NCBI GenBank assembly: GCA_021774575.1
Contig: JAJFIX010000023.1
Span: 4,166-68,165, forward strand
DNA length: 64,000 nucleotides
Origin: Alphaproteobacteria bacterium
GTDB taxonomy: Bacteria > Pseudomonadota > Alphaproteobacteria > UBA6615
Direction of reading: 5' to 3'
The notes under the pieces: generated by a model
What the model saw: only the letters and a program-made list of their open reading frames with translations
Database searches by the model: none
Told to the model about the DNA's origin: nothing
Shown here: in pieces, positions 8,849 through 26,500 of the stretch
How positions within the stretch are numbered: position 1 is the stretch's first letter
Layout of the letters: each line of letters opens with the position of its first letter
Made by a program: the position numbers and the translations under genes

Positions 8849-9484
8849 CTAGTTAACAGTGGGCGTAATTTGCGCGATTAAATCCTCGATAGAGCCGCCG
8901 TTTCGGCGCAAAATCGTTGCAAATTCCGTCTTCTGGGACTGCAGAAAACTCTTATTATTGATCGCTAAATCCAGCACCTTCGGCTGGCCTTCAATAACGT
9001 CGATAGTCCAGATAATAGGCGACGAAAAATGATCGGTCACCAGGACCGTGTTGACTTCAAATCTCCGGTTCTCGGATTCAGGACTATCGATTTCATTTGT
9101 GGCAAATATCTCGAAATGCCCGGTTGTTGGGAGGTTATCAACAACTGTGCTCGCCACAAATTCGGTCAAGGCGACAATGAAATGTTCTTTTTCCTCGTCG
9201 CTTGCAGTGATCCAGTGGCGGCCGAGGGTCAGCCGGGCAATCGCTTCCGTGGCGAAGGACGTGGTAAATGTGTCGCGCATCGCGGCGCGGCGCTCCAGGG
9301 GCTCAAGGGACGCATCCGTCAGCGCTGTAACGCCCTGCGCAGTCAAAACCTGGATAAATTGAGGGGCAACTAGGCTATTTGAGCTGCCAGCCCCGTCGGG
9401 CATTGCTGTAACCGGCTGACTGATGGTGAGAAGCATCAACGCCCAGGCGGCGCACGCAATAAAATGCCTTGCGCCTGCGGTCAT
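8849..9484 (-). CDS. MlaC/Ttg2D-family periplasmic lipid-binding protein (paralogue 1)
   Basis: Signal peptide. Aligns by eye to E. coli MlaC ('LTLGRHWITASDEEKEHFIVALTEFV' ~ '[26 protein letters not shown]'). Confidence 0.7.
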   Translation of the reverse strand: MTAGARHFIACAAWALMLLTISQPVTAMPDGAGSSNSLVAPQFIQVLTAQGVTALTDASLEPLERRAAMRDTFTTSFATEAIARLTLGRHWITASDEEKEHFIVALTEFVASTVVDNLPTTGHFEIFATNEIDSPESENRRFEVNTVLVTDHFSSPIIWTIDVIEGQPKVLDLAINNKSFLQSQKTEFATILRRNGGSIEDLIAQITPTVN

Positions 9485-9778
9485 TATTTTACCACTTAGA
9501 GGTGAGTTGCCGTCATTGGTTTGTTTGTTCATCAGGCGGGTCACTTCGAATTTGTTATTATCACTGAGGTGACGAACTGATATTGGGTATCTGAAATAAC
9601 AGAATACCCAGCAAGGGCTGATCGATGGCAGCCAGCGAGAGCCGCCTCGGCACCAGGGGACATTACCCCATAATTTAGTTGCTGAGAAAGCGCAAATTAG
9701 GGAAAATCGTTGCTATTAGGTCACAAATGGACCTGAAGTGCTGTGGATAGATGTGCTCTGGTTTTCGGGAGGCGGCGG

Positions 9779-10576
9779 TTATCCTGCGATTTCATCGATT
9801 AAGGCCGGGATTGATCCTCCCACTTGCCGTAAGATTTCGGCAAATTCCGCGCGTTGGGTCAGCAGGAAACTGCGCCCAGCAAAGGTTGCATCAAGTATGC
9901 GCAATTTGCCGTCGGTGGTAACCACGGACCACAAGACCTCGCCCTGGACGTCTGCGGATGAAAACAAGGACCTTACTTCAATGAGCGTGTCGGTCCGCTC
10001 CACCGCATCGACCTGACGTGCCGAAACAACCTCGATTCGGCCGTTCGGCGGAAATCCCTCAATGAGTTGCTTGGCCAGAAAACCGCCCAGGATTGCTCTA
10101 AATTGATCGCGTTCTCCCTCGTCGGCCTTGTTCCAGGCGCGGCCGAGGACGATCCGACTAATTTCCTGGGTAGCGAACTTTTGGTCGAAGAGATCACTGA
10201 AAAATTGACGCAATAGAGCCGGGCTGTTGGTTTGGTCGTTAAGCGCCGTAATGCTCGTCTGGGCGAGGTCGTTGATAAATTCTGGGGCTAGAGCAATAGA
10301 ATCCTGGCCATTCTGCGCCAATTGCAAAGGGGTGGCGGAGTTGATGGATCGCATATGTTCGGGCGACGATGGTGGGCCGGCCGCTAAGGGGGGCGTTACC
10401 AATGCTGCAGTTATTGCGATTAAAATACCTGCTCCGGCCGCAGTCCTCACAGAACTTGCGAGCAGGGATACGAAATATTTAGCCAACAGATTATTAGGAT
10501 ATTTCACTGAGCACCTATTCGTTAATGTTTTCGATTTTGCCGAAACGGCGAAAATTTGGAATTTAAAAATATTCAT
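9779..10576 (-). CDS. MlaC/Ttg2D-family periplasmic lipid-binding protein (paralogue 2)
   Basis: Same domain signature ('IVLGRAWNKADEGERDQFRAILGGFL'). An alternative GTG start at 10450 gives a cleaner signal peptide. Confidence 0.65.
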   Translation of the reverse strand: MNIFKFQIFAVSAKSKTLTNRCSVKYPNNLLAKYFVSLLASSVRTAAGAGILIAITAALVTPPLAAGPPSSPEHMRSINSATPLQLAQNGQDSIALAPEFINDLAQTSITALNDQTNSPALLRQFFSDLFDQKFATQEISRIVLGRAWNKADEGERDQFRAILGGFLAKQLIEGFPPNGRIEVVSARQVDAVERTDTLIEVRSLFSSADVQGEVLWSVVTTDGKLRILDATFAGRSFLLTQRAEFAEILRQVGGSIPALIDEIAG

Positions 10577-10606: not shown

Positions 10607-11341
10607 CTAACGCCCCAATGTTTCAATGAGTCCATCCAAAGATCCTCCATTGCGTTGGAGAATGCGGTCAAAATCTCCCTTTTGCCCGAGAAGAAAGCTC
10701 GTCCGGGCAAAGGTAATATCAAGTATTTTCATTTCACCATCGACCGTTGCCACGATCCATGGAACTCTGGCGGAAAAATTTTGGCCGACAAAAACGGTCA
10801 CTACTTCGGTCTGCGGTAAGCCGAGCTCCGATTGTCCGGCCAGGGAGGCGCCGCGTACCTGAAAGCGACCATCGGGCACCCGGTCAATGATGACGTCGGC
10901 CAAGTGGATCGCCAGCACATCAAGAAAGGCGTCGCGCTGCTCTATCGATGCCGTTGACCAGATGCGACCGAGGACCGCCTGGCCGATTTGCTCCGACGCA
11001 AAAGCCGAGGAAAAAATTTGGCGAAATATCTCATGGGCCAATTGCCGACTTGTCTGGGCTTGGGTCAACGCGGCAAGACCCGCATCGATCACGGTGTCGA
11101 CGAAAATTGACGCGACATTGGTCGGGTCATCTGGCGCCTGAAAAATCCAGCGCGGCCCAATCGGTGTCGCGTTTTGGTTCGCAATTGGGCGAGCGGTCTC
11201 GGCAAAGCCAATGCTTGAAGTGAAAATTGCCACAGCTAGGCAAAATGCCAAACTCGCACCCGCTGTCGCAACAGGGCCGAAGGACACGAGAATTGCCGCG
11301 CCTGCGCGCCTAATTGAGTTATGTATAAATACTGTATTCAC
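10607..11341 (-). CDS. MlaC/Ttg2D-family periplasmic lipid-binding protein (paralogue 3)
   Basis: Same domain signature ('AVLGRIWSTASIEQRDAFLDVLAIHL') with an N-terminal signal/anchor. Confidence 0.65.
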   Translation of the reverse strand: MNTVFIHNSIRRAGAAILVSFGPVATAGASLAFCLAVAIFTSSIGFAETARPIANQNATPIGPRWIFQAPDDPTNVASIFVDTVIDAGLAALTQAQTSRQLAHEIFRQIFSSAFASEQIGQAVLGRIWSTASIEQRDAFLDVLAIHLADVIIDRVPDGRFQVRGASLAGQSELGLPQTEVVTVFVGQNFSARVPWIVATVDGEMKILDITFARTSFLLGQKGDFDRILQRNGGSLDGLIETLGR

Positions 11342-11671
11342 TGTTCTTTACGTGGCCAGGATATGAATTTTACTAACACTGTCGTGCCGGTTACTCGCTC
11401 ATAGTATCCGTATGGGCATAGTATAGTGTTATATATGTCTTTGTCGCGAAAATTTTTATAAGTTGAGTGAAAGATATATTAAATTGATATTCCGGAAAAA
11501 CACAGAATATGCCCACTTATCGGCCGCCCGCACATGACCCGCACATAAATTGACCAGATCAACCTGCACAATCGCGCAACCGCGTGGTCAGGTGCCAATC
11601 GCTAAGTTACGGCATCATTTGTGTGCGATATCTGGAATGCTGTTCAGAGACCGAGAGCTGTGCACTCAAAA

Positions 11672-11685
11672 TTGACCTGGATCAA
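11672..11685. promoter_or_regulatory. FNR/FixK-type box TTGAC-CTGG-ATCAA (one mismatch to TTGAT-N4-ATCAA)
   Basis: Palindrome read directly. Lies in the 500 bp AT-rich divergent intergenic region ~165 bp upstream of the beta-propeller gene. Confidence 0.45.
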
Positions 11686-11742
11686 GTTTTTCTTCCAAAA
11701 TTCCAATAAAGACCATGATTAGGCGGAATAAACGGTAAAATG

Positions 11743-11756
11743 TTGATGCATGTCAA
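11743..11756. promoter_or_regulatory. FNR/FixK-type box TTGAT-GCAT-GTCAA (one mismatch)
   Basis: Second palindrome ~93 bp upstream of ATG 11843. An FNR-type regulator is encoded in the same cluster. Confidence 0.45.
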
Positions 11757-11842
11757 TGTTCCACCCGTATTCGGTCACTACTTTTCAATTATCAATATTG
11801 CCATTGTTCTCTGTTCGAGAGCGCTCCAAAAAGGAGATCCCA

Positions 11843-13240
11843 ATGACCCCTAAACTATCAAAACTTTTTCGACTCGTTATTGCCCCGGCGGCTCTGTCTG
11901 TTGCGCTCATGGTTCAGCCGGTGGCCGGATCGTTTGCGCAATCCGACGGCCCCGGCGATGGTTGGACAACGCCGCTTGCCGAGCAACTCGGTGTTCGATT
12001 GGTCCAACGGTTCGATTCCTCGGGTGAAGATGCCTGGGATCCGCTAGCCCATCCCAACGTCTTTATTACAACCGAGGGGCCCGGATATGGCGGCCTGTTA
12101 AGTGGTGTCACCCAGCCGGGTATCGCTATTATTGACTCCGATACCCGTGAAGTTGTGGCTCATCAGAGCTATGACGTTCTCGCCCTTGGCTGGGAAAATG
12201 TGTTCGAACCCCACGGGCTCGGCGTTTCTCCTGACGGGCAATGGATTTATCTGCCAAGTGGCGAGGGATCCTTTTCCTCGGTCGGCAAAGGTCGGTTGCT
12301 GGTCATTAACGCGCGCACACTGAAACTGGACAAAATTTTAGGACTGCGCGGTCAACCCCATCACGCCAAATCCTTCACGATGCCGGACGGAACGGGCCTT
12401 GCCTATGTTTATGGCTGGGGCCAACCGATGTTTGCGATGGACCCCAGTGATGATAATCGCGTTGTCGGGGGATTGGATTTCAATGCAATGGGTATCGAGG
12501 GATATCTATATTTTGCCTCCCCCGAGGGCGACGAGATCATTGCCAGTGGGCGTTTTCGACGCGGTGTAGCGAGAAATGAGTTACATGGCAATGTGATGGT
12601 TCGCATCGATACGTCTGACTGGAGCTTGATTGACTATGTTCCAGTTGCTGACAGCACCCCTGTCTGGGTCTCTTTTAGCGCAGACGGCGAGAATGCGTAT
12701 TTCAGCGGTGGTCACTCTAGCCTCGTATTCAAATACGACCGGATCGGGGACGAGGTGACGTCGCACGCACGCGCTGGCGTTGAAGGTCCGTACGGTGTGC
12801 ATTTAGGTTGGGATGACACCTTCCTTTATGCGGTTGGCAAGGGCGAAGGATCCCACAATCGCGGTAAAGTATTGGGGCTTATCAATACCGATCTGATGGA
12901 TAGGTCAACCCGGCCAATGGATCAGTTTACGACAAACTGCTTGCGTGGCGATCACGGCACGCTTCATCCTGATCCGGATGCGAATGAGTTGTGGATTACC
13001 TGCAATTCGAGCTTTGAAATTGTGGTTTTTGACCTCGACCGTAACGAAGTCTCAGCCAGAATTCCGATGCCGAACGGTGGTAGCACTCACTCCGGCTCTT
13101 TCCTTCAATATGCAGGCTGGAATGGCGAAGTCGTCGCCGACCAGAACGGGCTTCAAGGCAGCGCACTTACCCTGAAGCGCCAACTGCTCGGGTTGGAGGG
13201 TGCCGAAACGGTGCCCGCCGATGAGCTAGTGGGCGACTAA
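11843..13240 (+). CDS. secreted beta-propeller protein of unknown function (SBP56/MtoX-like or NosZ-propeller-like; unresolved)
   Basis: AAGGAG RBS 8 bp before ATG 11843 and a Sec-type signal peptide. Blade-like repeats ('AYFSGGHSSLVFKYD', 'ELWITCNSSFEIVVFD'), an HH pair, no Cys-rich site. Confidence 0.5.
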   Translation: MTPKLSKLFRLVIAPAALSVALMVQPVAGSFAQSDGPGDGWTTPLAEQLGVRLVQRFDSSGEDAWDPLAHPNVFITTEGPGYGGLLSGVTQPGIAIIDSDTREVVAHQSYDVLALGWENVFEPHGLGVSPDGQWIYLPSGEGSFSSVGKGRLLVINARTLKLDKILGLRGQPHHAKSFTMPDGTGLAYVYGWGQPMFAMDPSDDNRVVGGLDFNAMGIEGYLYFASPEGDEIIASGRFRRGVARNELHGNVMVRIDTSDWSLIDYVPVADSTPVWVSFSADGENAYFSGGHSSLVFKYDRIGDEVTSHARAGVEGPYGVHLGWDDTFLYAVGKGEGSHNRGKVLGLINTDLMDRSTRPMDQFTTNCLRGDHGTLHPDPDANELWITCNSSFEIVVFDLDRNEVSARIPMPNGGSTHSGSFLQYAGWNGEVVADQNGLQGSALTLKRQLLGLEGAETVPADELVGD

Positions 13241-13344: not shown

Positions 13345-14616
13345 ATGTTTGCGCGACGAATGACCAAGGAGATGGCTGTGCTGAACAAACTGAAATCGAA
13401 TGCCGGATTAGGTGTCATTGCCGGAGCGGCCATTTGCACCACTGCAATTTTCCTTGTTGTTTCAAGCAGCGCCCAATCCCAAGCGCCTGCGATCAGCGAC
13501 GCGTCGCCGCAAGTTGAAAACGGCCGGGACATATTTATGACAGCGGGGGGCGTTGGTTGTGCAGCCTGTCACGGAATTTTTGGTGAAGGCGATGTCGGCA
13601 TCGGCCCTTATGCGCGCGGTGTGAATAGGGCGTCGATCGACGCGGCGCTAGAATCCATTGCCGAAATGTCCTTCCTTCGAAGTTCGGTACGCGGCCAATC
13701 CATCGACGATATTGCTGCCTATACGGAGTGGCTCGGCAATCATCAACTGGTAAAGACCCTCGCCAAGCGCGGCCGTTTTATTCCCGACAGCGTATCCGTC
13801 CGTCCAAACACATTGATCCAGCTGGTTATATCTAATGCCAGCCGGTTTCCCCGCACCTTTGCCAGTGACGATATGGGTATCGGTGAGATTTCCGTGGATG
13901 GACGTGAGGTCGCAGAAATTATCTGGACGTCGCCTAGTGAGGAGGGAACTTTCACCCTACGTTGCTTGGATTGCCGGATTACCGATCAGCAACTTTCTAT
14001 CCAAATTTCGAATGACGCTGCGCCCTTCACCCCCGTTTCTGGGCCACCGGTTGAGGTGGCGAATACGCCTGCACCAGCCGTTCAGACAGCGGCGGATTTG
14101 GACTTGATCGACCGCGGTCGAGATATTTTTCTCAATGCCGGTGAGGTGGGGTGCACGGCCTGTCATGGCTCTTACGCCGAAGGCGATGTTGGAATTGGTC
14201 CTTATAATAGAGGCCTCGATGAAGACGATATTCGTCTGGCGTTGGCTAATGTCGATGCGATGCGTTTCCTGCAGCAACAACTAGACGATGAACAAATTCA
14301 TCAAGTCGCTGCCTATTACGGATGGCTGGGTGATCACCAGCTTTTCAAAACGCGCATGATCCGTGGGCAATTCTTTCCGAATAGAATTCGGGTGGCGCCG
14401 GGGGCGGCTATTCAGTTGGCGATTACCAATCGCGCTCGTTCCCCTGGTGCATTTTTTAGCGCCGACATGGGGATTGAACCCTTCGTTGTCCAAGGTTTGG
14501 AGACGGTCGATTTTTTCTGGACCGCGCCAAGGGTTGAAGCCGAATTCACCCTGCGCTGCGCCGATTGCGCGACATCAGATTGGCTGACCATCGAGACGAC
14601 GCAGGCTGCACGATAG
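13345..14616 (+). CDS. periplasmic di-heme c-type cytochrome with internally duplicated [cyt c + cupredoxin-like] modules
   Basis: Two CxxCH motifs ('CAACHG', 'CTACHG'), each followed by 'GEGDVGIGPY'. Two ~90 aa beta-sandwich-like modules sharing 'DMGI' and 'LRCxDC' but lacking His ligands. Start uncertain (13345, 13372 or 13378). Confidence 0.6.
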   Translation: MFARRMTKEMAVLNKLKSNAGLGVIAGAAICTTAIFLVVSSSAQSQAPAISDASPQVENGRDIFMTAGGVGCAACHGIFGEGDVGIGPYARGVNRASIDAALESIAEMSFLRSSVRGQSIDDIAAYTEWLGNHQLVKTLAKRGRFIPDSVSVRPNTLIQLVISNASRFPRTFASDDMGIGEISVDGREVAEIIWTSPSEEGTFTLRCLDCRITDQQLSIQISNDAAPFTPVSGPPVEVANTPAPAVQTAADLDLIDRGRDIFLNAGEVGCTACHGSYAEGDVGIGPYNRGLDEDDIRLALANVDAMRFLQQQLDDEQIHQVAAYYGWLGDHQLFKTRMIRGQFFPNRIRVAPGAAIQLAITNRARSPGAFFSADMGIEPFVVQGLETVDFFWTAPRVEAEFTLRCADCATSDWLTIETTQAAR

Positions 14617-14635: not shown

Positions 14636-16063
14636 ATGACAAATTTGAATGTCGCCAACCGCCCGTCCTTCAAGCCCGTCCGAAGAACTTGGGCCGCTGT
14701 GGGCCGATCCTGGGGAGGGTCGCATCCCCGGCTGGTCGCAATTTTTTCCTTACTTGCCGCTCTCGTCGTCTCGTCTGCTTGGCTAGCATTTCCCTATATT
14801 CTTGAAGGCCGTGGGCTCATTGCCGATGTCGGCGACACGGTGCAGACCGAGCGCCGCGACCGCGCGACTACGGTCGGGCAGCTGCTCACCCGTTATGCCG
14901 ATGGGCTGGGCGGGGCGGAAATCGACATGCTCTACGCGACACCGCGTTTTTTCGAAATCGCGGGGCAAGCCTCAAGCTATGATCAATACCGGCCCGATCA
15001 ATACATTGTGTTTATGATTAATGAGACGACCCATATCGAGGACCTGCCGCAACAGTTGCCCGAGGCGACCTTGATCGTCGATGGAAAGACGTATCAACCG
15101 GTCGATATTGAAGGGCCCATTGATGTCGTTCACCATCGATCCTCAACGGTTCGTTTTGCCGCGATTGACGCCAATGGCCAGCCGATTATTCCTGCCGATA
15201 CAAGCGAAATTGAACTCAGCCTTGTCGGCGATTGGGGCGACGCCGGGATGCCACGTACCGCATCATGGGATTTGCCGATCGATTATGCCGAGACCTATGA
15301 CGCAGGAATTTGGACACCTGTGATGGTTTTTGCCCTTGCGGCGGGCTTGTTGTCGGCAGTTTTGACCCCGTGTTTGCTGCAATTGCTGGCGGTTTATTTT
15401 GTCACCCTTGTTGGAGTTTCGGCTGAGAGTGGTGGTGGTAGTGGCAGTGCTTCTGCCTCCGGCCCTGGGGGCCGAAAAATGTTATATGCAGCGCTGGCGT
15501 TTGTGGCCGGTTTTACAGTTCTCTACACGGTTGCGGGTGCCGCGATCGGCTATGCCGGCAAGGAAATGCAGATATTGTCTGCCGAATGGAGCCGTCACGT
15601 TGGCATTGCGTCGGGACTTTTGATCATTGCAATGGCAATTTGGTTCGGTATCAGGTCGCGGGCACCGATGGTCTGTAAAATCCCGTTGCCCGGCGCGGTT
15701 GCTCGGTTTGACAAACGCGGCGTCATCGGCTCGGCGCTCGTCGCCGCCGGTTTTTCGCTGGGCTGCATGACATGCTTTAGCGGTGCGATTGTCGCGACCC
15801 TCCTCGTCTATGTCGGTGCGTTGGGGAGTGCCTCAATCGGAGCACTGGTTCTCTTCCTGTTCTCGATCGGTGTTGGAATTCCGTTCTTGGCCGGAGCGCT
15901 GTTCCTGTCCCGAGCCACTCGGGCAATGGCATGGGTGTCGAAATTTTCGCCCCAGATCGGTTTCGTTTCGATGGTGCTGATGGCTGGGTTCGGCGTGCTC
16001 CTGATTACCGATAATTTTCACGAAGTGAGCAATCTCATTTACCCATGGCTCGGTTTGGGGTGA
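14636..16063 (+). CDS. DsbD/CcdA-family transmembrane thiol-disulfide electron transporter with a Cys-free periplasmic N-terminal domain
   Basis: TM1 'AAGLLSAVLTPCLLQLL' matches the CcdA 'LSPCxLP' motif. A later 'GCMTCFSG' carries the second Cys pair. The ~230 aa N-domain has no Cys. Confidence 0.6.
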   Translation: MTNLNVANRPSFKPVRRTWAAVGRSWGGSHPRLVAIFSLLAALVVSSAWLAFPYILEGRGLIADVGDTVQTERRDRATTVGQLLTRYADGLGGAEIDMLYATPRFFEIAGQASSYDQYRPDQYIVFMINETTHIEDLPQQLPEATLIVDGKTYQPVDIEGPIDVVHHRSSTVRFAAIDANGQPIIPADTSEIELSLVGDWGDAGMPRTASWDLPIDYAETYDAGIWTPVMVFALAAGLLSAVLTPCLLQLLAVYFVTLVGVSAESGGGSGSASASGPGGRKMLYAALAFVAGFTVLYTVAGAAIGYAGKEMQILSAEWSRHVGIASGLLIIAMAIWFGIRSRAPMVCKIPLPGAVARFDKRGVIGSALVAAGFSLGCMTCFSGAIVATLLVYVGALGSASIGALVLFLFSIGVGIPFLAGALFLSRATRAMAWVSKFSPQIGFVSMVLMAGFGVLLITDNFHEVSNLIYPWLGLG

Positions 16064-16102
16064 ACCGGAATGCTGGTTGATTGGTTCCAATTTGGAGGTA
16101 GG

Positions 16103-16447
16103 AAAATGAAAAAACTTTTGATCCATGCGGCTTTGGCATTCTTTGTCCTGACGCCGGTTGTCCTGGCGTCAGGGGCAGCAAATGCGGCCGAGCGCGATAT
16201 CACGTTGACTGTTCTCATGACTTGCCCGACGTCCGAACCACCGTTGGTCCGAAAAACGCTGCTTGACGTCAATGGCGTGAGCGAGGTCGCGGTATCCTAT
16301 TCAGACAAAAATGCATATGTGATTTTCGATGATGCGGTGACGAATGAAATGGAACTGATTGCCGCGATTAATGAGATTGGGCTGCGGACGTCACGTGATG
16401 AGGATGGGGGGGATATGGAAGCCATGGATGATATGAGCGAAATGTAA
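16103..16447 (+). CDS. small periplasmic HMA-like (ferredoxin-fold) protein with degenerate 'MTCPTS' site and Met-rich C-terminal tail
   Basis: Signal peptide. 'ITLTVLMTCPTSEPPL..VSEVAVSY..AYVIFDD' mirrors the HMA 'GMTCxxC' layout but with a single Cys. C-terminus 'MEAMDDMSEM' is an MxxMxxMxxM motif. Confidence 0.5.
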   Translation, partial: KMKKLLIHAALAFFVLTPVVLASGAANAAERDITLTVLMTCPTSEPPLVRKTLLDVNGVSEVAVSYSDKNAYVIFDDAVTNEMELIAAINEIGLRTSRDEDGGDMEAMDDMSEM

Positions 16448-16490: not shown

Positions 16491-17660
16491 ATGACAAGTT
16501 TCAAATCAATGATGGTCTTAAGCGCCGGATTTCTCCTTTTGGGTACGGCGGTTGCATTCGCTGTGCGAGAACCAAATGTGTCGCTCGCCGTTAGTGATAT
16601 TGAAAAATATGTGTTCGTTCCCAGTTTGGGGTCGGCCGACATTACGGTGATTGACAGTCGGAATAATTCTGTTGTCGGGACGATTGATCTTGACGAAATC
16701 CCGGACCGGTTGGTCGTGTCTTCCGCCGTCGGCCAGCTTATTGTCAGCAATCTAGAAAGTCGCACCGTTACATTGATCGATATAGAGACCGGCGATGAGA
16801 CTGCCGAGATCGCCCTAGATATAACGCCGCAATCCCTGGTCATGAGCCCCGAGGGGTATCTGGTCGCTGTGAGCGATGTTGATGCCGGCGTCGTCGCCGT
16901 GATTTCGTTGCACCGTGGCGTTGAAGTTTCGAGGATAGACAATCTTTCGGCGCCCTCTGGGTTAACTTTCAGCGATGATGGGTCGTTACTTTATGTTCCA
17001 GATGGTGCGTCAAATTCGATCAAACTTATCGATATCGTCCAAGGTAGGGCGTTTGGGGAGTTACCACTATCTGCTGGCAACCCTGATGGAGTAGGCGACC
17101 CGGAAATGCTCAGCGCCGTCACCAGAAGTGCCAATGGTCGCTTTGGCTTTTGCGCCATCGGTCATGCCGAGGAGCTTGCCATATTTGATTTTGGAACCGA
17201 GCAACGGGTCAAGACGCTCAAATTGGGTAACCAGCCTTCGCGGCCTTTCGGCACCGCGGATGGGCGATATATTATGGTGGCAAACAACGGTGATCGCACC
17301 GTGTCGATTATTGATACGCAGACCTTTGATATTGCCGCAACGCTGCCCGGGGCCGCCGATGTTACAGCAATTAACACCGGTTGGTTTGAGACCGTGGCCT
17401 TCGTCATCAGCGAAAGTGAGGACAAAGCGATCATCCTCGACCTCATGGATTTACGTAAATCTGGTGAGATTGAATTACCGAGTTCTCCCGGTCCAGGTGT
17501 CGTGACTCCCGACGCAGCGACACTTTATGTTGCGCTTAGCGATACCGATAGCGTCGCGGTGATCGATACACGGTCACGCCGGGTGACGGCAATTATCGAT
17601 AATGTAGGAACCCAGCCGCGAGGCGCGACAATGGCGCGAACGAATAATTATTGCCATTAG
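16491..17660 (+). CDS. YVTN-family beta-propeller repeat protein (NirF / cytochrome-d1-domain-like, no heme c motif), periplasmic
   Basis: Signal peptide. Roughly 40-residue repeats ('LYVPDGASNSIKLIDI', 'YIMVANNGDRTVSIIDT', 'LYVALSDTDSVAVIDT'). Confidence 0.6.
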   Translation: MTSFKSMMVLSAGFLLLGTAVAFAVREPNVSLAVSDIEKYVFVPSLGSADITVIDSRNNSVVGTIDLDEIPDRLVVSSAVGQLIVSNLESRTVTLIDIETGDETAEIALDITPQSLVMSPEGYLVAVSDVDAGVVAVISLHRGVEVSRIDNLSAPSGLTFSDDGSLLYVPDGASNSIKLIDIVQGRAFGELPLSAGNPDGVGDPEMLSAVTRSANGRFGFCAIGHAEELAIFDFGTEQRVKTLKLGNQPSRPFGTADGRYIMVANNGDRTVSIIDTQTFDIAATLPGAADVTAINTGWFETVAFVISESEDKAIILDLMDLRKSGEIELPSSPGPGVVTPDAATLYVALSDTDSVAVIDTRSRRVTAIIDNVGTQPRGATMARTNNYCH

Positions 17661-17704
17661 GCCCGACACCCTAGGTCAGCAACAAACTCGGGAGGTTGTG
17701 CAAA

Positions 17705-18361
17705 ATGAAAGAAAATTTTCGCCTTGGAATATATGGCAGCCTGGGACTGCTGCTTTGCGCCGCTACCGTAGCCGCCCTGTTGCTGATTAATAATCGCTTG
17801 GCGCCTGAAATCTCGGATCCGCCGCTTGAAATTGATGCGGCAATTATCGACCCAGGGGGACCATTTGCACTGGTCGATCATCAAGGAAAATCGGTAACCG
17901 ACCGTGATTTTCTCGGTCGATATCTACTGGTTAATTTTGGTTATACATTCTGTCCCGACATTTGCCCCACGACGCTCGGCCAAATTACCGTCGCGATGGA
18001 CCTGCTCGGTGAGAATGCGAACAAGGTTCAACCCGTGTTTATCACCGTCGATCCGGAGCGGGACTCAATTGAAGTTTTGGCCCGCTATATGAATTTTTTT
18101 CACCCTCAATTGATCGGCTTGACCGGCTCATCCGACCAGATCGCCAATGTCGCCCGGGTCTATATGGTTCACTACGCCCAGGCCGAGAGGGTCGAAGAGG
18201 CAAGCTATTATTCGGTCGATCACAGTAGCTTCATATACCTCATGGGGCCGGAAGGAGAATTTAGGGACGTCATTGCTTATGGAACTCTACCGCAGGAAAT
18301 GGCGTCGCTCATTGAGCGCCATATTTCAAACGATAGCTCGGCGTCCGGGGACGGCCAGTAA
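17705..18361 (+). CDS. SCO1/SenC-family copper chaperone (thioredoxin-like)
   Basis: GGGAGG RBS then ATG 17705. N-terminal TM anchor, 'FGYTFCPDICP' CxxxC motif and a downstream conserved His ('VDHSSF'). Confidence 0.85.
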   Translation: MKENFRLGIYGSLGLLLCAATVAALLLINNRLAPEISDPPLEIDAAIIDPGGPFALVDHQGKSVTDRDFLGRYLLVNFGYTFCPDICPTTLGQITVAMDLLGENANKVQPVFITVDPERDSIEVLARYMNFFHPQLIGLTGSSDQIANVARVYMVHYAQAERVEEASYYSVDHSSFIYLMGPEGEFRDVIAYGTLPQEMASLIERHISNDSSASGDGQ

Positions 18362-18414: not shown

Positions 18415-19194
18415 ATGCCAATGAAAAAGCAAAAAGATCCACTTTGCGGCATGATACTTCATGCAGAGCGTGGCAAATGCGCTTCCTGCGAAGTTCGGGC
18501 ACTCTCAATCTGCGCGCCTCTGGATCGGTCCGCTCTGGAAGTGCTGGCTGACTTGTCGGAGGTGGTAAATTTTAGGAAGGGTGACAGTATCTGCGCCGAA
18601 GGCGATCCGGTGGATTATTTTTTTACCGTGCAGTCCGGGGCACTGAAGACGTGTCGGTTACAGTCGGGGCGCCGTGACCTTGTGACCGGCTTTTTGTTTG
18701 GCGGAGATTTCCTCGGCCTGGCATTCTTTGCCGGGCAAATTGAGGCGGATACTCATTACCCATATGCCGTCAGGGCCTTAAGCAAGGGCCGCCTGTGTCG
18801 GCTGCCAAGACAGGCATTTTCCAAATTCATTGCCGATTATCCGCTTATTGAGAAACAAATTTTGGCAAAAATTTCGTTGAAACTGGAGCAGGCGGAAAAT
18901 CATATCCTGTTGCTTGGCAGAAAGAATGCGCGAGAAAAAATCTCTTCTTTCATTTTGCAACTTGATGACGCGCAGAGATTTGCTCGTCAAAATCTGGAGA
19001 GTGATTTTCAAGGTGTCGATACCGTTGATTTTCCTTTGGCGCGCCATGATATTGCCGATTACCTGGGAATGACTCCCGAAACAGTCAGCCGTGCCTTAAC
19101 TCAGCTGAAGGAAGACGGCTTGATCCGGCAACTCAGCTCACGCTGTGTTGCGCTCGTCCAGCGACAAATGTTGGAAGAGATAGCCGCAGGGTAG
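18415..19194 (+). CDS. Crp/Fnr-family transcriptional regulator, FnrN-like (N-terminal Cys cluster)
   Basis: N-terminal 'C..CASCEVRALSIC' (C-x2-C-x7-C plus an upstream Cys). cNMP-like beta-roll and a C-terminal HTH 'ETVSRAL' with the E--SR FNR-specificity residues. Confidence 0.8.
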   Translation: MPMKKQKDPLCGMILHAERGKCASCEVRALSICAPLDRSALEVLADLSEVVNFRKGDSICAEGDPVDYFFTVQSGALKTCRLQSGRRDLVTGFLFGGDFLGLAFFAGQIEADTHYPYAVRALSKGRLCRLPRQAFSKFIADYPLIEKQILAKISLKLEQAENHILLLGRKNAREKISSFILQLDDAQRFARQNLESDFQGVDTVDFPLARHDIADYLGMTPETVSRALTQLKEDGLIRQLSSRCVALVQRQMLEEIAAG

Positions 19195-19275: not shown

Positions 19276-19641
19276 TTATTGAGTGGCTAGAAATTCAACA
19301 ATGTCGGCGGCGTCTTGGGCATCTCCGACGCCGGGAAAGGCCATGCTGGTGTCGGGTACGAGTACTTGAGCCTCGGCAATGTACAGCAATAGCGTCTCTT
19401 CATCCCAGGTGAGACCAGATCCTTTCATCGCGTCGGAATATTCGAAATCGGCGAGGTCGGCCGCGGGTCGTCCGATAACACCGGCCAGGCTCGGCCCGAT
19501 GATATTTTCGCCAGCCGTCAAAGAATGGCACGCAGCGCAGACCTGAAACAGGTCTTCACCCCGCGCGGCGTCTTGGGCCAGTATAGGCGTTCCGCTCGCC
19601 AGCACTATTGCGGTCGCCATTATTGATATTGTTGCTTTCAT
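19276..19641 (-). CDS. class I c-type cytochrome (c2/c550-like), periplasmic
   Basis: Signal peptide, single 'CAACHS' heme motif and a Met sixth-ligand region. 121 aa. Confidence 0.85.
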   Translation of the reverse strand: MKATISIMATAIVLASGTPILAQDAARGEDLFQVCAACHSLTAGENIIGPSLAGVIGRPAADLADFEYSDAMKGSGLTWDEETLLLYIAEAQVLVPDTSMAFPGVGDAQDAADIVEFLATQ

Positions 19642-20082: not shown

Positions 20083-20531
20083 GAGGTGGCGCCTATTTGC
20101 AACACCCAAATGAACTATTCCATATAATTCGGTCGAGCTATAGATTTGTTGGGCCCGTGAGTTGGTGCAACTACAAGACCGACTGAACTGTCCTAAGACC
20201 GTTGTGCAGTCTGAACTTTATGAAGGTTTTTCAATTCAATTTACGTCGCTGGAACGGCTCAAAAGTGGCCCAATTTGGGGGTCGGTTATCGAGCCGATTG
20301 CCTGTGGAAAAAACATGGTTTCATCCACAGGGCTGTGTACTGTTCTGAGTTGTGGCGAGACCGTGGCTTGGACATCGGGGGAATCAATGAATATCGAAAC
20401 ACTGCCTTCAGCGGCAGTGTGCTGCTCTTGGCAAGGTATAACCTGTCGGGGTTGCGCAAATGTGGGGGCGTGCTTTGGACGATAACCGTTTTCGATCGCG
20501 GTTATTTGGCCGGCCGTTTTCTTGCCGATTA

Positions 20532-23500
20532 ATGCAATACAGAAATGACGGGCCTTCGAGGTCATTTCTGCATTTGGCTGCAGTCGCGCTCTTTTCTGCG
20601 TCACTTTTGGGCTTTGGCGGAGATGCTGTTGCGCAGAGCGTGGATTGGGTGCTCAACCTCAACGACACCGGCTCCGATCCGACCGCCGCCGGTGGAACCA
20701 TCACCTACAATATCAACGTTTCCAATAACGGGGCCGACCCAGCACCAGTGACGACGATCGATCTCGACGTGCCCGCAGGGACAACGCTCGCGGCGACGAG
20801 CGGGACGATCACCGGGTGCGCACCGGTCCCGACTGCCGGGCCTGCCACCGTTACCTGTACGATTCCGGCATTGGCGGCGGGGGGGGCTGTCGATCTGTCA
20901 GCCGATGTCGTTCCGGTCGCTTCGGGAACTGTGACCATCGGCGCGCACGTGCCGACCACCGTGGGCGCAGTAACCGATTTCGATACGGCTAACAACGATC
21001 AAACTGAAAACACGACGATTACCGCAGGGGCGGATGTCGAATTGCTGATTTCCGGGCCAGCCACAGCGGCTTCGGGCAGCCAGATTAGTTACAGCTTTGA
21101 TGCAACCAATAACGGCCCCGATCCGGCGTCAAACCTGACCCTGAGTTTTCCTATACCGACGGGGGTTTCCAACATCACCGAACCGCCGGGCTGTTCCCTG
21201 TCTGCGAGCACCTATACTTGTGCGGTCTCAGGGCCTCTCGCGCCGGGTGCCAGTGTCTCGCTGGTTTTTGACGTTCAGATTTCCGCTGCCTCCGGGTCGA
21301 CGGTGACGCCGGTCGCAACTATCTCCGTCGGCTCGCCAGTTGATCCGCTGGCCAGCAACAACACCGACAGTCTCGACACAGATATCACAGCGGGAACCGA
21401 TCTTCGTATCACCAAATCGCGGAGCCCATCGGGCACGCTTCTGGTTGGCGATACCGTAACCTTCACCCTTGCTGGAAGCTACACCGGTGACGACCCCAGC
21501 GGGATCACAATAACCGACACCATCCCGGCAATCTACGCCATCCAATCGGTTACGCCGTCTGCCGGTAGCGGGTTTGCCTGCACCGTGACCTTGCAGGATA
21601 TTTCCTGCTTGCGGGCGACAGGTGCTGGTCCGGGGGGCAATGTTTCCTTGGGCTCTATCTCCATTGTGGCAACAGCCATAACGGCAGGATCGGCTGTTAA
21701 TACAGCGACCATCGTCGCGACAGGCCCTGTTGATTCAAACCTCTCAAACAATAGCGACACCGACGGCGGTGCGACAATCCAAGATCCAACTGTCGATCTG
21801 CGGGCGAACAAGTCCGGTCCAAATCCGCCGCTCATTGTTGACGGCAATAGTTATGATTTTTCGATCAGCGCTACCAATATCGGCAATGCAGATTTTTTCG
21901 GTACGATCGTTCTAACCGATAGTCTGCCGGCGGGGTTGACGGCGACCGGATTTGTCTTGAACGGATGGACTTGCGCGCCGGTTCCCGCAGCAGTGTTGCC
22001 CATTGCGGGCCCAGCGGTGATTGAATGCACGCAAATTTTTACCTCCGGAAGTCCACTCGCCTCCGGTGCGACGACTTCGAGTGCCGTTATACAGACGACG
22101 GCCACTGCGTCGGGAACCATCACCAACAGTGTCACGGTCTCTTCCCCCGATGCAAATATTGCAGACAGCAATTCTGGCAATGACGTTGCGACCACGACCG
22201 TTACCGGCAGCACACTCGGCGCCTCGGCCGATATTCTCGTCGAGAAGACGGCTAGCCTTGCCACACTGCCGGCAGGCGATGTGCAGACCTTTACCCTTCG
22301 TGTGGTCAATAACGGTCCCATCGCTTCAGCCAACATTACTCTCACCGACAGTCTGTCCGGATTGATCAACAATTCGGTGGGGCCGACCGGTGCTGGGTTG
22401 ATCAGCGTCGACGACACTTCGTCGGTAGGGTTGGCTACGGGGCTGACATGTTCCACCGCCTCGTCGGGGGGCAGCTCTCGCCTCTTGACCTGTACCATCG
22501 TGAATTTGCCGGTCTGTGTGGGCGCCGACTGCCCGATCATCACTGTGCAAGTTCGCCCCGGCGGCAATGGCGGTTCGCGGACCAACACAGCCGACGCTAT
22601 TTCTTCGGTCACCGTCGATTCCGATCTGACGAATAATTCGGCCAGCGCTACTTTCACAGTAGAGCCCCGCGCCGATATGACCGTGACCAAGGTCTCGTCG
22701 CCGTCTCCGGCTACCGCCGGGCAAGATCTGACCTATGTTCTCACCGCGCGAAATATCAGCAATGGTCTCAGTGCTGCAGCGAGTGTGACGATAACCGATA
22801 CGCTGCCGAACAATGTAACTTTTGTCTCCGCATCGCCCTCGGCTGGGAGCTGCACGACCACGCCGATACTCAATTCGACGACCGGTGCTGGCAACAATAC
22901 GGTGAGCTGTTCTCTTGGCACGATCAATAACGGCGCCCAGCGGACGGTGACGATTGTCACGCGGCCGAACTTCGTGACCCGCGGCACCACTCTTTCCAAC
23001 AATGTGACCGTTGCCACGACGACGATCGAGACCGATGGCACCAACAATTCGGCGATCAATCTGACCCCGGTTGTGGTTCCTGTGCTCGACCTTCTGGTAA
23101 ACAAGACCGATAGCGTCGACCCTGTCGCGGTTGGGGATGACACGGTCTTTTCTATTTCGGTGCAGAATATTGGCCCATCGGCGGCTGAAAACGTCGTTTT
23201 TACCGATGTTATGCCGCCGTCTCGGCTGAGCTTCCAATCTGTCATCGTCTCAGCGGGGGGGAGCTGCCTAACGGTTCCTGCGGTCGACAGCTTCGGGCAA
23301 ACCCTTGAATGCGACTTTCCGCGGCTTCTTGCGGGCACCTCGGAGACAATAACGGTCACCATGCGGGGCACCGAAAAGGGTACAGTATTCAACACAGCCG
23401 ATGTGACGTCCGATGAGGTTGTCGCCGGATTTGATACCAACACCACCAACAATAATGTAATGGAGCAGACGACGGTCCGTTCCAAGGCAGACCCCGAAGT

Positions 23501-26500
23501 AGTGAGCAAAGTGGCTTCGGTTAATCCGGTCAATTTGCGCGACAATTTCAATTTTGTCATTACGGTTCGCAACAATTCCGGTGCGGGTCTGGCTGAAGCT
23601 GATGATGTCCTGGTTTCCGACACGCTACCGACGGGTATGGTTTTGACGGGGCCGCCAACCGTCACAGCCGGGCTGGCCAATGTCACAGGCTCAACCTGTA
23701 CTGGGCTTGCCGGTGAGACGTCGTTTACGTGCGACCTTGGGACATTTACCGGAGGAGGAACGGCGGAAATCACCGTGCCGGTCGAAATTACCTCGGTGAG
23801 CTCTAACCCGCAGACTATTGTTAACACGGCGTCGATCACGACCTCATCGCTTGATGTCAATTCGGCGAACAATACGAACTCGGGTTCGGTCGATGTGAAC
23901 TCTTCGTCAATCTCTGGCAGCCTCTTTCGCGATTTTACGGACGACGGTGCGATCACGGCTGGAGACACCGGGATCGGCGCTGTGACGATGACGCTCACCG
24001 GTACCAGTGCCGATGGCGCCGCAATTTCGCGGACCGTTGCGACGGCAGCCGATGGGACATTCACATTTGCCCTGCTGCCCGAGGGCAACTATACGATTAC
24101 ACGCGGCACACCTTCGGAGCCTAATCTGGTAGACGGGACCGACACGCCGGGGACTGCCGGCGGAACAGTCAGCGCGCCGATCACGATCGCCGGTATCTCG
24201 CTGGGCGGGAATACGGCCGCAGCGAATTATCTCTTTGCGCTGATCCCCCAGGCCTCTATCGGCATTGCCAAGACAGTGCAGTCGGGGCCGACACCCAATG
24301 CAGACGGGTCTTACAATGTTACTTTCCGGCTGACCGTCGAAAATTTGAGCCTTGAGGCCTTGGAGAACATTGTAGTGGACGACGCCCTTGCCGGCGCGTC
24401 CCCTTTGTTTGGGGCCTTCAGTGCCCTGGCAACCCCGGCGACGGATCCGCTGGCGCGCGGGAGTTACACCATCCTGGCGGCACCTTCGGGAAGTTGCGGC
24501 GGTTTGCAAGCTGGGTTCGACGGTAACGCCGCACAAACAGTGGCCACCGGTTTTGGGCTAGCCATCGGCGCCACCTGCACCATCGACCTGATACTTCGTG
24601 TGCAACCCAGTGTTCCGTTCCCGCCGGTTCTGGCCTCGGGCGGGCGGTACGAGAACCAAGCCACCGTCGATGGGCAAGGCGCTGTCACCGGCCAAACTTC
24701 GGCCACCAACGCGCAACTTGCCGACAGTTCAGATAATGGCGTCAACCCCGATCCAAACAGTAATAGCCAGGCCAACGAAGCGGGCGAGAACGATCCGACG
24801 CCGGTTGATCCGGTCTATGTGCGGTCCGTCGGATTGGTGAAGACGGTCGATACCGGCGCCCTTTCAACACCGGCGGTCGCAGGCGATATTTTGACCTTTG
24901 GCTTCACGGTGACCAATACCGGTGACGTGACGTTAACCGGTCTGACACTAGCGGATCCGCTGCCCGGCATTTCGGTCTCGGGCGGGCCGATTGCGAGCCT
25001 GACACCGGGCGCGTCGGACAGCCTAACCTTTACCGCGACCTATACGCTCACCCAGGCCGATGTCGACGCCGGGCAGGTGGTGAACCAGGCCACGGTTTCC
25101 GGTATTGATCCATTTGACGGGACGGTGACCGATCCATCGGGTACGACGACCACCAATGACACGCCCCTGACGACGACGCTTACGCCGGGACCGGCGATTG
25201 GGCTGGTTAAGACCGCCAATGCTTCGGGGCTTTCAAGCCCGTCGGTTGTTGGAGAGCGGATCACCTATTCGTTCGCCGTCACCAATACGGGCAATGTGAC
25301 GCTGTCGAATGTAACGCTAACCGATATCCTGCCGGGGATCGTAATCTCGGGCGGTCCAATCGCAACGCTGGCGCCGGGTGCGACCGACGCTACGACTTTC
25401 ACCGCGACCTACGACATCCTGCAATCGGATATCGACGCGGGCCAAGTATCGAACCAAGCAACCGCGACCGGCTCGCCTCCATTTGGCGCGGATGTAAACG
25501 ATTTATCGGGCACGACGACAGGCAACGATACGCCAACCGTCTCGTCGGTCACCCAGGCCCCGGCGATTGATCTTCAAAAGACGGCCGATGACAGCGCCTT
25601 TCTGGTGACCAGCGCGGTACCCGGCGACACCTTGCCCTTTACTTTCCAGGTTACCAATATCGGCAACACGACTCTAACCGGTATCACGATAACAGATCCG
25701 TTGCCGGGGATTGTCATCACCGGTGGACCGATTGCAAGTCTCGCGCCCGGGGCGACGGATAGCACTACGATTTCTGGCAGTTACTCGATCACTGCCGCCG
25801 ACATCCTCGCGGGGCAAATAGATAATACGGCGACAACGACCGGCACCTACACAGACTCCGGCGGTAGTCCCCAGACCGTGACCGACACCGATAGTGCGAC
25901 AGGTATTGTCGTTGCCATCGACGCCAACCCGGAAATCTTTCCGCCATTCACCACCGATGGCGGCACGACGACATCAATGCTTGCCTCCGATAGCGTGGCC
26001 AACCAGCCGGCGACCCTGGCGAATGTGACGATTTCGGTCGTCACCACTGACCCGGAATTGACCCTTGATCCGGCAACGGGACTGATCACGCTCGCTCCTG
26101 GAAATCCGGCAGGTGAGTATTTCGTGACGTATCAGATTTGCTCGACTGCCAGTCCAGCGGTTTGCGACACGGCGATCGAAACCGTGACCCAGAGTGCGAT
26201 CCCCTCGATTGAAGCCACGAAAACGCAAGTCTTGACCGACAATGGCGATGGAATCGACGGCGTTGGCGACACGCTCACCTATACGATCACCGTGGAGAAT
26301 ACCGGCAATGTTCCGGTCGAAAACATTGCCCTGACCGACACGCTCACCACGCTCAACACCGGCTTTGGATTAACGCTCGACGGCGGTCCGACTTTCGTCT
26401 CCGCAAGTTCCGGGTCCCTCGAAGGTGATCTGGCGATTGGCGAAACGGCCACCTATACGGCAAGTTTCACGCTGACTATTGATGCCTTAATCGGTGGTGG

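Follow-up and report, generated by a model that had tools for sequence, protein, structure and literature searches.

The window analyzed here, a stretch of 64,000 nucleotides from contig JAJFIX010000023.1 of an Alphaproteobacteria bacterium (assembly GCA_021774575.1), encodes a predicted periplasmic di-heme protein built of two modules, each pairing a cytochrome c domain with a cupredoxin-like sandwich. Judged from sequence comparison, the former copper site of each sandwich carries two conserved thiols, and a reductant transporter and copper chaperones are co-encoded. By analogy with characterized copper proteins, we give an even chance to the proposal that this thiol site would be a Cu(I)-thiolate, kept reduced, in the electron-transfer partner of a periplasmic propeller metalloenzyme.

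Architecture of the protein

The open reading frame (ORF) at 13345-14616 (+) is real, and its maximal reading from the ATG at 13345 gives the 423 amino acids named in the original prediction. That ORF stands, and its start has to be moved: the true start is probably the GTG at 13378, 11 codons past the ATG, because an AAGGAG Shine-Dalgarno sequence (13366-13371) lies six bases before it and because the resulting product of 412 amino acids agrees in length with the sole identical database protein (P0001, 412 amino acids). The features of the gene are as follows, with structural assignments taken in part from an AlphaFold2 (AF2) model and its predicted local distance difference test (pLDDT) scores.

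13378-14616 (+): target gene, a tandem double of a cytochrome c plus two-Cys cupredoxin-like module (ORF, repeat, homolog alignment)
13378-13476 (+): N-terminal signal peptide or membrane anchor (…AGAAICTTAIFLVVSSSA/Q) (sequence; AF2 pLDDT <50 at residues 19-49)
13507-13737 (+): cytochrome c domain 1, heme motif C72-A-A-C75-H76 at 13558-13572, M108 likely sixth ligand (Pfam, alignment, AF2)
13738-14016 (+): cupredoxin-like module 1, R170 at the N-terminal His-ligand position, C207-L-D-C210 at 13963-13974 (Pfam, AF2, Foldseek, profile)
14017-14094 (+): Pro/Ala-rich linker joining the halves (sequence; pLDDT ~52-62 at residues 231-250)
14095-14331 (+): cytochrome c domain 2, heme motif C270-T-A-C273-H274 at 14152-14166, M306 likely sixth ligand (Pfam, alignment, AF2)
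14332-14607 (+): cupredoxin-like module 2, G368 at the N-terminal His-ligand position, C405-A-D-C408 at 14557-14568 (Pfam, AF2, Foldseek, profile)

The two halves share 46% identity over 183 amino acids (BLASTP, E = 1e-57), and a separate residue pairing gave 47% over 168 positions, a likeness far beyond chance that bears out the two-fold repeat first noticed in the translation. Pfam models for Cytochrom_C (PF00034; 34.6 bits, cut-off 21.3), Cytochrome_CBB3 (PF13442; 32.9 bits, cut-off 27), and, over two stretches, Cupredoxin_1 (PF13473; 36.7 bits, cut-off 27) all match the protein, each half being a class I cytochrome c domain followed by a cupredoxin-fold sandwich. The AF2 model, computed on an alignment of 40 homologs (mean pLDDT 83.8, predicted template modeling score 0.75), folds each half into a helical cytochrome domain and a sandwich of eight to nine strands, with block-mean pLDDT of ~90-97 in the sandwich regions.

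Position of the cysteines in the sandwich

In the model, C207 closes the strand formed by residues 201-207, and C210 lies in the loop ahead of the last strand. The best single-domain PDB matches in Foldseek are Brucella FtrB (8VUK; template modeling [TM] score normalized to the target 0.84, root mean square deviation [rmsd] 1.9 Å) and the Bacillus anthracis structures 4HCF/4HCG/4HCI (normalized TM score 0.78-0.83), with rmsd 1.9-2.1 Å over all of these matches; multicopper oxidases and NirK superpose on both target sandwiches simultaneously. A profile built from 41 modules and searched against PDB sequences matched 4HCF (E = 4e-5), nitrosocyanin (E = 4e-4), and pseudoazurin (E = 0.07). In these alignments, from which the residue numbering is taken, the first Cys of each pair (C207, C405) falls on pseudoazurin Cys78 and nitrosocyanin Cys95, both established copper ligands; the second Cys falls at i+3, where the C-x-x-H of pseudoazurin, nitrosocyanin, and 4HCF has its His; and the N-terminal His of 4HCF and Glu60 of nitrosocyanin align with R170 in module 1 and G368 in module 2.

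Compared residue by residue with a type-1 copper site, the modules thus retain the Cys ligand that closes the strand leading into the ligand loop (C207, C405). The N-terminal His is absent, its position holding R170 or G368 and varying across the family, and the C-terminal His is replaced by C210 or C408, so that the missing His ligands of the original prediction are substantiated at both positions. At the axial Met/Gln position, module 1 has Q215 and module 2 has no counterpart, and the residue is not conserved. Apart from the nonconserved H133 and H331 at the module starts, the sandwich strands of the mature protein have no His at all. Of the three equatorial ligands in a type-1 copper site, two thus have their positions filled by the Cys pair. 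The initial description of the sandwich as cupredoxin-like is likewise upheld by the above-cut-off Cupredoxin_1 match, the Foldseek TM scores of ~0.8, and the profile match to 4HCF, and neither Foldseek, the profiles, nor the alignment yielded a nonmetal Ig-like or SoxZ-like fold without a conserved Cys pair.

Conservation and classes of the module family

The conservation set comprised 40 full-length homologs of the target (41-64% identity). Both CxxCH motifs are invariant in it (40/40), which, together with the Pfam matches, confirms the class I heme c domain assigned earlier to each half. In the heme domain, no variation occurs at G77, E81, G82, G85, G87, or P88, and conservation of at least 90% is reached by D83 and I86 and by the stretch E-G-D-x-G-I-G-P. 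M108, M306, Q159, Q357, N164, and N362 are invariant, and the two Met residues are likely heme ligands. In the sandwiches, C207, C210, and C408 never vary, and 39 of the 40 homologs have C405, the exception being a sequence with a garbled C terminus. Of the R-C-x-D-C motif that the original prediction had offered as conserved, the Cys pair therefore stands, and the Arg and Asp of the motif are majority residues only. DMGI, its other candidate motif, proved not to be invariant: M177 is less than 90% conserved, and variants include GIGI, NLGL, and ENGI.

An exhaustive HMMER search of 1.84 billion representatives for relatives of the module returned 36 clusters with E <= 1e-30, a number that rises to 194 when the limit is E <= 1e-10. 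The entire doubled family forms one 50%-identity cluster, and the majority of relatives consist of a single module of 200-230 amino acids (about 210 amino acids being typical); the single module is the usual form and the tandem double one derived, minor branch. Relatives in Group A (~20 clusters of 50%-identity representatives) have both C207 and C210, as in the target. In Group B, C207 is kept, C210 is missing, and a Cys stands exactly at position 170, the N-terminal His-ligand position (12/12), a placement confirmed by invariant alignment columns. One sequence has C-D-C. More distant groups, including the P0200/P0201 lineage and a group with the motif “GGYGCxxCHG,” have the sandwich without any Cys, and a lone sandwich Cys was never seen among the aligned 50%-identity representatives. 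The conserved trait, as far as these alignments indicate, is two thiols on the old copper site rather than the CxxC string.

A permuted relative of 315 amino acids (P0197) places two CxxC cupredoxin modules ahead of a single cytochrome c domain, and each of its modules has a His at the N-terminal ligand position (“EVTHT,” “EVTHS”).

The partner propeller and the operon

The target gene lies second in an operon whose other features, all in or directly beside the cluster, are these:

11672-11756 (+): two FNR/FixK-box-like palindromes, TTGACCTGGATCAA at 11672-11685 and TTGATGCATGTCAA at 11743-11756, each with one mismatch to TTGAT-N4-ATCAA
11843-13240 (+): His-rich periplasmic beta-propeller, 465 amino acids from Met32 of the ORF 11750-13240, presumed catalytic metalloenzyme subunit (homologs, AF2)
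14636-16063 (+): CcdA/DsbD-like membrane protein with a Cys-free periplasmic N-terminal domain containing His (ETTH, HHR) (Pfam, alignment)
16070-16447 (+): periplasmic HMA/MerP-like small protein with MTCPTS (a single Cys) instead of MxCxxC (Pfam, NCBIfam)
16491-17660 (+): YVTN/YncE-type beta-propeller accessory protein (Pfam, NCBIfam, synteny)
17696-18361 (+): SCO1/SenC copper chaperone or thiol reductase (PF02630, E = 3.9e-50)
18415-19194 (+): FnrL/FixK-like Crp-family regulator at the end of the cluster (Pfam, NCBIfam)

The propeller upstream of the target gene matched no Pfam and no NCBIfam family, and it belongs to a large family of its own, with >400 homologs at 90% clustering (55-79% identity, ~60% mean column identity). 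H124, H173, H174, H338, H371, H416, C366, and C387 are invariant; the two Cys are the only ones of the mature protein, and seven to nine His are conserved in the family. The AF2 model has a pLDDT of 87, and the protein is predicted to be Sec-exported. Six propeller homologs of ~650-700 amino acids end in one fused cytochrome c plus CxxC-sandwich module, and because of this fusion the module is functionally tied to the propeller, of which it is the dedicated partner. The same fusion lends support to the idea of a redox partner voiced when the sequence was first read.

Described enzymes were considered for the propeller and set aside. Methanethiol oxidase SBP56, considered for its SCO1 linkage, is rejected because the propeller has no Pfam match of any kind, and a clade III lactonase-type NosZ (PMC13477213) because the propeller has no match to NCBIfam NF052460; only the accessory YVTN propeller matches that model, and weakly (43 bits against a cut-off of 700). 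The system is present in groundwater metagenome-assembled genomes assigned to the Alpha-, Beta-, Gamma-, and Deltaproteobacteria, and also in a large number of metagenome contigs that have no assignment. Genomes of this kind from Woeseia and Halopseudomonas were among the sources of propeller homologs. The search for annotated relatives of the propeller found no plasmid-borne ones, and the literature search found no published description of the gene cluster.

The order propeller, module, CcdA-like protein is shared by the window and loci L001-L004, L025, L026, L027, and L034 (the last two from Group B), with CcdA-like proteins of 465-475 amino acids; locus L022, at a contig edge, has the module and CcdA-like genes only. 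In every Cys-pair locus examined, the CcdA-like gene stands directly 3' of the module gene. The YncE/YVTN propeller and SCO1 come next in five loci, the window included. A PCuAC gene (PF04314) lies between the YncE-like propeller and SCO1 in L025 and L026, and the window and L003 have the HMA/MerP-like protein in place of PCuAC. The top NCBIfam match of that small protein is a model named “UxxU metal-binding (seleno)protein.” In L027, the trio is found beside a type II enzyme of the dimethyl sulfoxide reductase family (molybdopterin, 4Fe-4S, and EB_dh heme subunits), with a small Cu-oxidase_2 protein and a rhodanese also nearby (L027:1-4391 and 10879-11772).

The CcdA-like protein matches DsbD_TM (PF02683) at 43.7 against a cut-off of 27.1, and its C246, C347, C377, and C380 are invariant. 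The alignment with CcdA 5VKV, a weak match (E = 0.05), puts C246 (in “TPC”) and C380 opposite its two active Cys. Its N-terminal domain (14636-15300; ~190 amino acids) has no Pfam match and no Cys; ETxH and HH are invariant in it, with Arg or Lys after HH, and it may be a metal-binding domain.

The module family also includes a lineage in which the thiols are missing (P0200/P0201, loci L028 and L032). Its propeller is 37% identical, keeps all conserved His, and has Ala and Asn at the positions of C366 and C387; no CcdA-like gene follows the module. The lineage has instead extra His-rich cupredoxin-like proteins and, in L028, also a TlpA-like redoxin. This joint loss suggests that the thiols of module and propeller are tied to each other and to the reductant transporter. 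The two extra cupredoxin-like proteins of L028 (L028:3562-4515 and L028:6284-6847) both contain “EHHF,” and one of them is fused to cytochrome c and has a long His/Asp-rich insert (DEHDHHHGHGDHGDHD…); from these motifs, they look like His-based metal sites replacing the thiol pair.

Proposed role and alternatives

The sandwich descends from copper-binding Cupredoxin_1 proteins, its type-1 site rebuilt as a two-thiol site in which the canonical copper Cys was kept (C207, C405) and a second Cys took the place of the C-x-x-H His or, in Group B, of the N-terminal His. The heme would pass electrons between the respiratory chain and a His/Cys metal center of the propeller, in whichever direction they flow. 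If the site is a Cu(I)-thiolate, the following sequence of events can be envisaged. The CcdA-like reductant transporter and SCO1 would keep the thiols reduced, and the reduced thiols could then bind Cu(I), as the Cys pair of CupA does. Metallation would resemble that of the CuA cysteines, with reduction first and copper delivery through Sco and PCuAC afterwards. The resulting site could hand copper, electrons, or both between the heme and the propeller metal center, and the tandem duplication may allow one polypeptide to serve two propeller subunits, with a 2:1 stoichiometry.

We favor a Cu(I)-thiolate for three reasons: the fold is a copper-binding one, and the Cys pair follows its copper-ligand positions; Cu(I) held by a Cys pair has been seen before in a cupredoxin fold, at the site that C74 and C111 form in CupA (PMC5646241); and reductant supply, Sco, and PCuAC together make up the set that reduces and metallates the two-Cys CuA. 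In Thermus, COX II receives its copper from PCuAC after Sco has reduced its cysteines (PMC6696091).

A number of observations weigh against this proposal. No ligand beyond the two Cys is conserved, with position 170 occupied by R, H, A, Y, Q, or G, and Met177 and Gln215 being majority residues only. A two-coordinate Cu(I) would be a poor one-electron redox center. A periplasmic CxxC beside a CcdA-type transporter suits a metal-free redox disulfide equally well, and SCO1, PCuAC, and the CcdA-like protein may instead work for cytochrome c maturation or for the metal site of the propeller. Accessory genes are lacking around the fused form in L024, and the co-variation described above comes from a single lineage. 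As for the propeller, only its invariant His suggest a metal center. An hhalign comparison of the family with Paracoccus denitrificans NosZ gave a probability of 0.3%, no nos_propeller domain (PF18764, Pfam) or NosZ NCBIfam match was obtained, and Foldseek ranks NosZ eighth among generic propeller matches; thiocyanate dehydrogenase gave no PDB sequence or profile match.

Among the alternatives, the one that survives best is a metal-free thiol/disulfide relay, which we consider possible, if clearly the less probable reading. The Cys pair would be a redox-active disulfide like that of nDsbD, passing reducing equivalents from the CcdA-like protein to propeller C366/C387 or to a substrate, and the heme would carry one-electron traffic separately. 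The constant position of the CcdA-like gene directly after the module gene in Cys-pair loci speaks for such a relay, as do the weak alignment of its canonical Cys with those of CcdA 5VKV, the spacing of the pair itself (CxxC being typical of redox-active disulfides), and the need for an external acceptor, since the periplasmic domain of the CcdA-like protein has no Cys of its own. Further, the Cys pairs of propeller and module and the CcdA-like gene occur or are missing as a set, and sandwich Cys come as a pair or not at all. However, the pair sits on former copper-ligand positions and shifts between them, which is easier to explain by a retained metal site; copper chaperones (SCO1, PCuAC, and the HMA-like protein) are co-encoded; the thioredoxin-like context of a cis-Pro loop and helix N-cap is missing; and a thiol relay would have no obvious role inside a heme-based electron carrier.

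A permanent disulfide that stiffens the former ligand loop is unlikely. The sandwich would then be a copper-free docking or spacer domain that places the cytochrome on the propeller, and the CcdA-like protein, SCO1, and PCuAC would serve heme attachment and the propeller metal. The protein is periplasmic, where DsbA normally oxidizes Cys pairs, and many Cupredoxin_1/EfeO-type domains have no copper ligands; the lack of any other conserved ligand and the occurrence of the Cys in pairs or not at all fit this explanation too. Disulfides between residues i and i+3, however, are strained and seldom structural, and the strict link to a reductant transporter, together with the joint loss with the propeller Cys, would be unexpected for a passive staple. 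A purely stabilizing disulfide is the weaker option because related sandwiches (P0200/P0201 and the “GGYGCxxCHG” group) fold without any Cys and because of this reductant transporter linkage.

A rubredoxin- or zinc-ribbon-like Fe/Zn center of four Cys across the two modules, or the use of CxxC as an unusual heme-attachment site, is very improbable: the target does have exactly two CxxC besides its two CxxCH, and a Pfam zinc-finger match at residues 202-212 stays below threshold (19.6 bits, cut-off 27), but the existence of a mostly single-module family with one pair each, and of Group B forms without CxxC, essentially excludes both, and the inter-half linker is long and of low AF2 confidence, and the motif lacks the His or Lys after it that heme attachment would need.

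Returning to the Cu(I)-thiolate, a wider interpretation, which we regard as speculative and rather doubtful, is that propeller, module, and CcdA-like protein make up an unrecognized, widespread, FNR-controlled periplasmic respiratory metalloenzyme with the layout of NosZ, assembled from parts in which no NosZ homology was detected, and that in it a new Cys2 copper-thiolate center would link the heme to a His/Cys multinuclear catalytic center. Candidate substrates of such an enzyme would include nitrogen oxides, sulfur compounds, and other small molecules. Were this true, the Cys2 copper-thiolate center would take the place of type-1 copper or CuA and count as a novel class of copper site in biology.

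Regulation and surrounding genes

FNR-like sites occur only four times in the 64 kb of the window, and two of these fall in the 500-bp gap upstream of the propeller gene, so positioned that low-oxygen (FNR-type) regulation of the operon is probable. The operon genes run head to tail. Shuffled sequence gives at least as many intrinsic terminators as the operon interior does, and the only strong hairpin belongs to a convergent cytochrome c550-like gene adjoining the cluster (19276-19641, −).

Divergent from the operon are three tandem MlaC/HpnM-like periplasmic lipid-binding paralogs (8849-9544, 9779-10576, and 10607-11341, all −), and L026 has an MlaC-like gene ~3.4 kb upstream of its propeller. 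On the other side, an ORF of 3443 amino acids (20460-30791) contains nine DUF11 and four DUF7507 repeats with CARDB-like segments, a composition that marks its predicted product as a giant surface or adhesin-type protein.

Significance

Cupredoxins are textbook cases of a rigid, conserved metal site; here the Cys ligand stays and a second Cys replaces one or the other His, in a family linked by fusion and synteny to an uncharacterized enzyme family. The interest lies in this rebuilt copper site, with two placements of the second Cys, and in its coupling to a large enzyme family, more than in the doubling. If copper is bound, the site would be a new type in an electron-transfer context, and the assembly logic of Sco, PCuAC, and thiol reductant would reach beyond CuA. 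If the site is metal-free, a cupredoxin would have taken on the work of a DsbD-type thiol relay. In both cases, a periplasmic redox activity that has yet to be assigned, and that is probably expressed at low oxygen, is indicated by the operon.

Comparison with known systems

Formally, the modules belong to Cupredoxin_1 (PF13473), with 4HCF, EfeO-N, and FtrB (8VUK) as references. Unlike these, the target module is fused to cytochrome c; the N-terminal His of 4HCF is Arg or Gly in the target, and the alignment with 4HCF ends at the shared Cys. Canonical cupredoxins carry a C-terminal His and a Met after the Cys, where the target has Cys and Gln or a gap. The sandwich, the register of the ligand loop, and the C-x-x-(H/C) spacing are shared with pseudoazurin and nitrosocyanin, but the target has neither His ligand and no conserved axial ligand, and a blue or red mononuclear copper center is for these reasons not expected.

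With NosZ and cNosZ (a NosZ with a CuA cupredoxin domain plus a c-type cytochrome), the system shares its layout of a His-rich periplasmic propeller, a two-Cys cupredoxin-fold domain, and a cytochrome c. The likeness does not detectably extend to the parts: the CuA ligand set H-x(n)-C-x3-C-x3-H-x2-M is absent, the target having C-x2-C with no His or Met after it and no upstream His; there are no nosDFYL genes here; and the domain order, cytochrome c and then sandwich, differs from that of NosZ systems. The Sco and PCuAC-type chaperones of the operon resemble those known from CuA assembly in cytochrome oxidase (PMC6696091).

The pairing of nDsbD with tmDsbD/CcdA (PMC2631958) also couples a sandwich with one Cys pair to a transmembrane reductant conductor, as here. 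In contrast to the Ig-like nDsbD, the target sandwich is a cupredoxin fold on a separate polypeptide with a fused heme domain, and the core trio has no thioredoxin-like partner corresponding to cDsbD.

CupA (the CupA/CopA N-terminal domain of Streptococcus pneumoniae, 4F2E) did not appear among PDB profile matches up to E = 10, so that sequence kinship is not detectable. It is membrane-anchored, acts on intracellular copper in a Gram-positive organism, and has no heme domain, unlike the target, which also has no counterpart of its second site (C-x-M-x-M), there being no Met after the target Cys. What the two have in common is a cupredoxin fold with a Cys pair at the metal site, and in CupA these Cys (site 1: C74, C111) are besides able to reduce Cu(II), after which an external reductant has to restore them (PMC5646241). 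The target has its C-x-x-C within the ligand loop, and the Group B relatives come closer to CupA, with one Cys before the loop and one within it.

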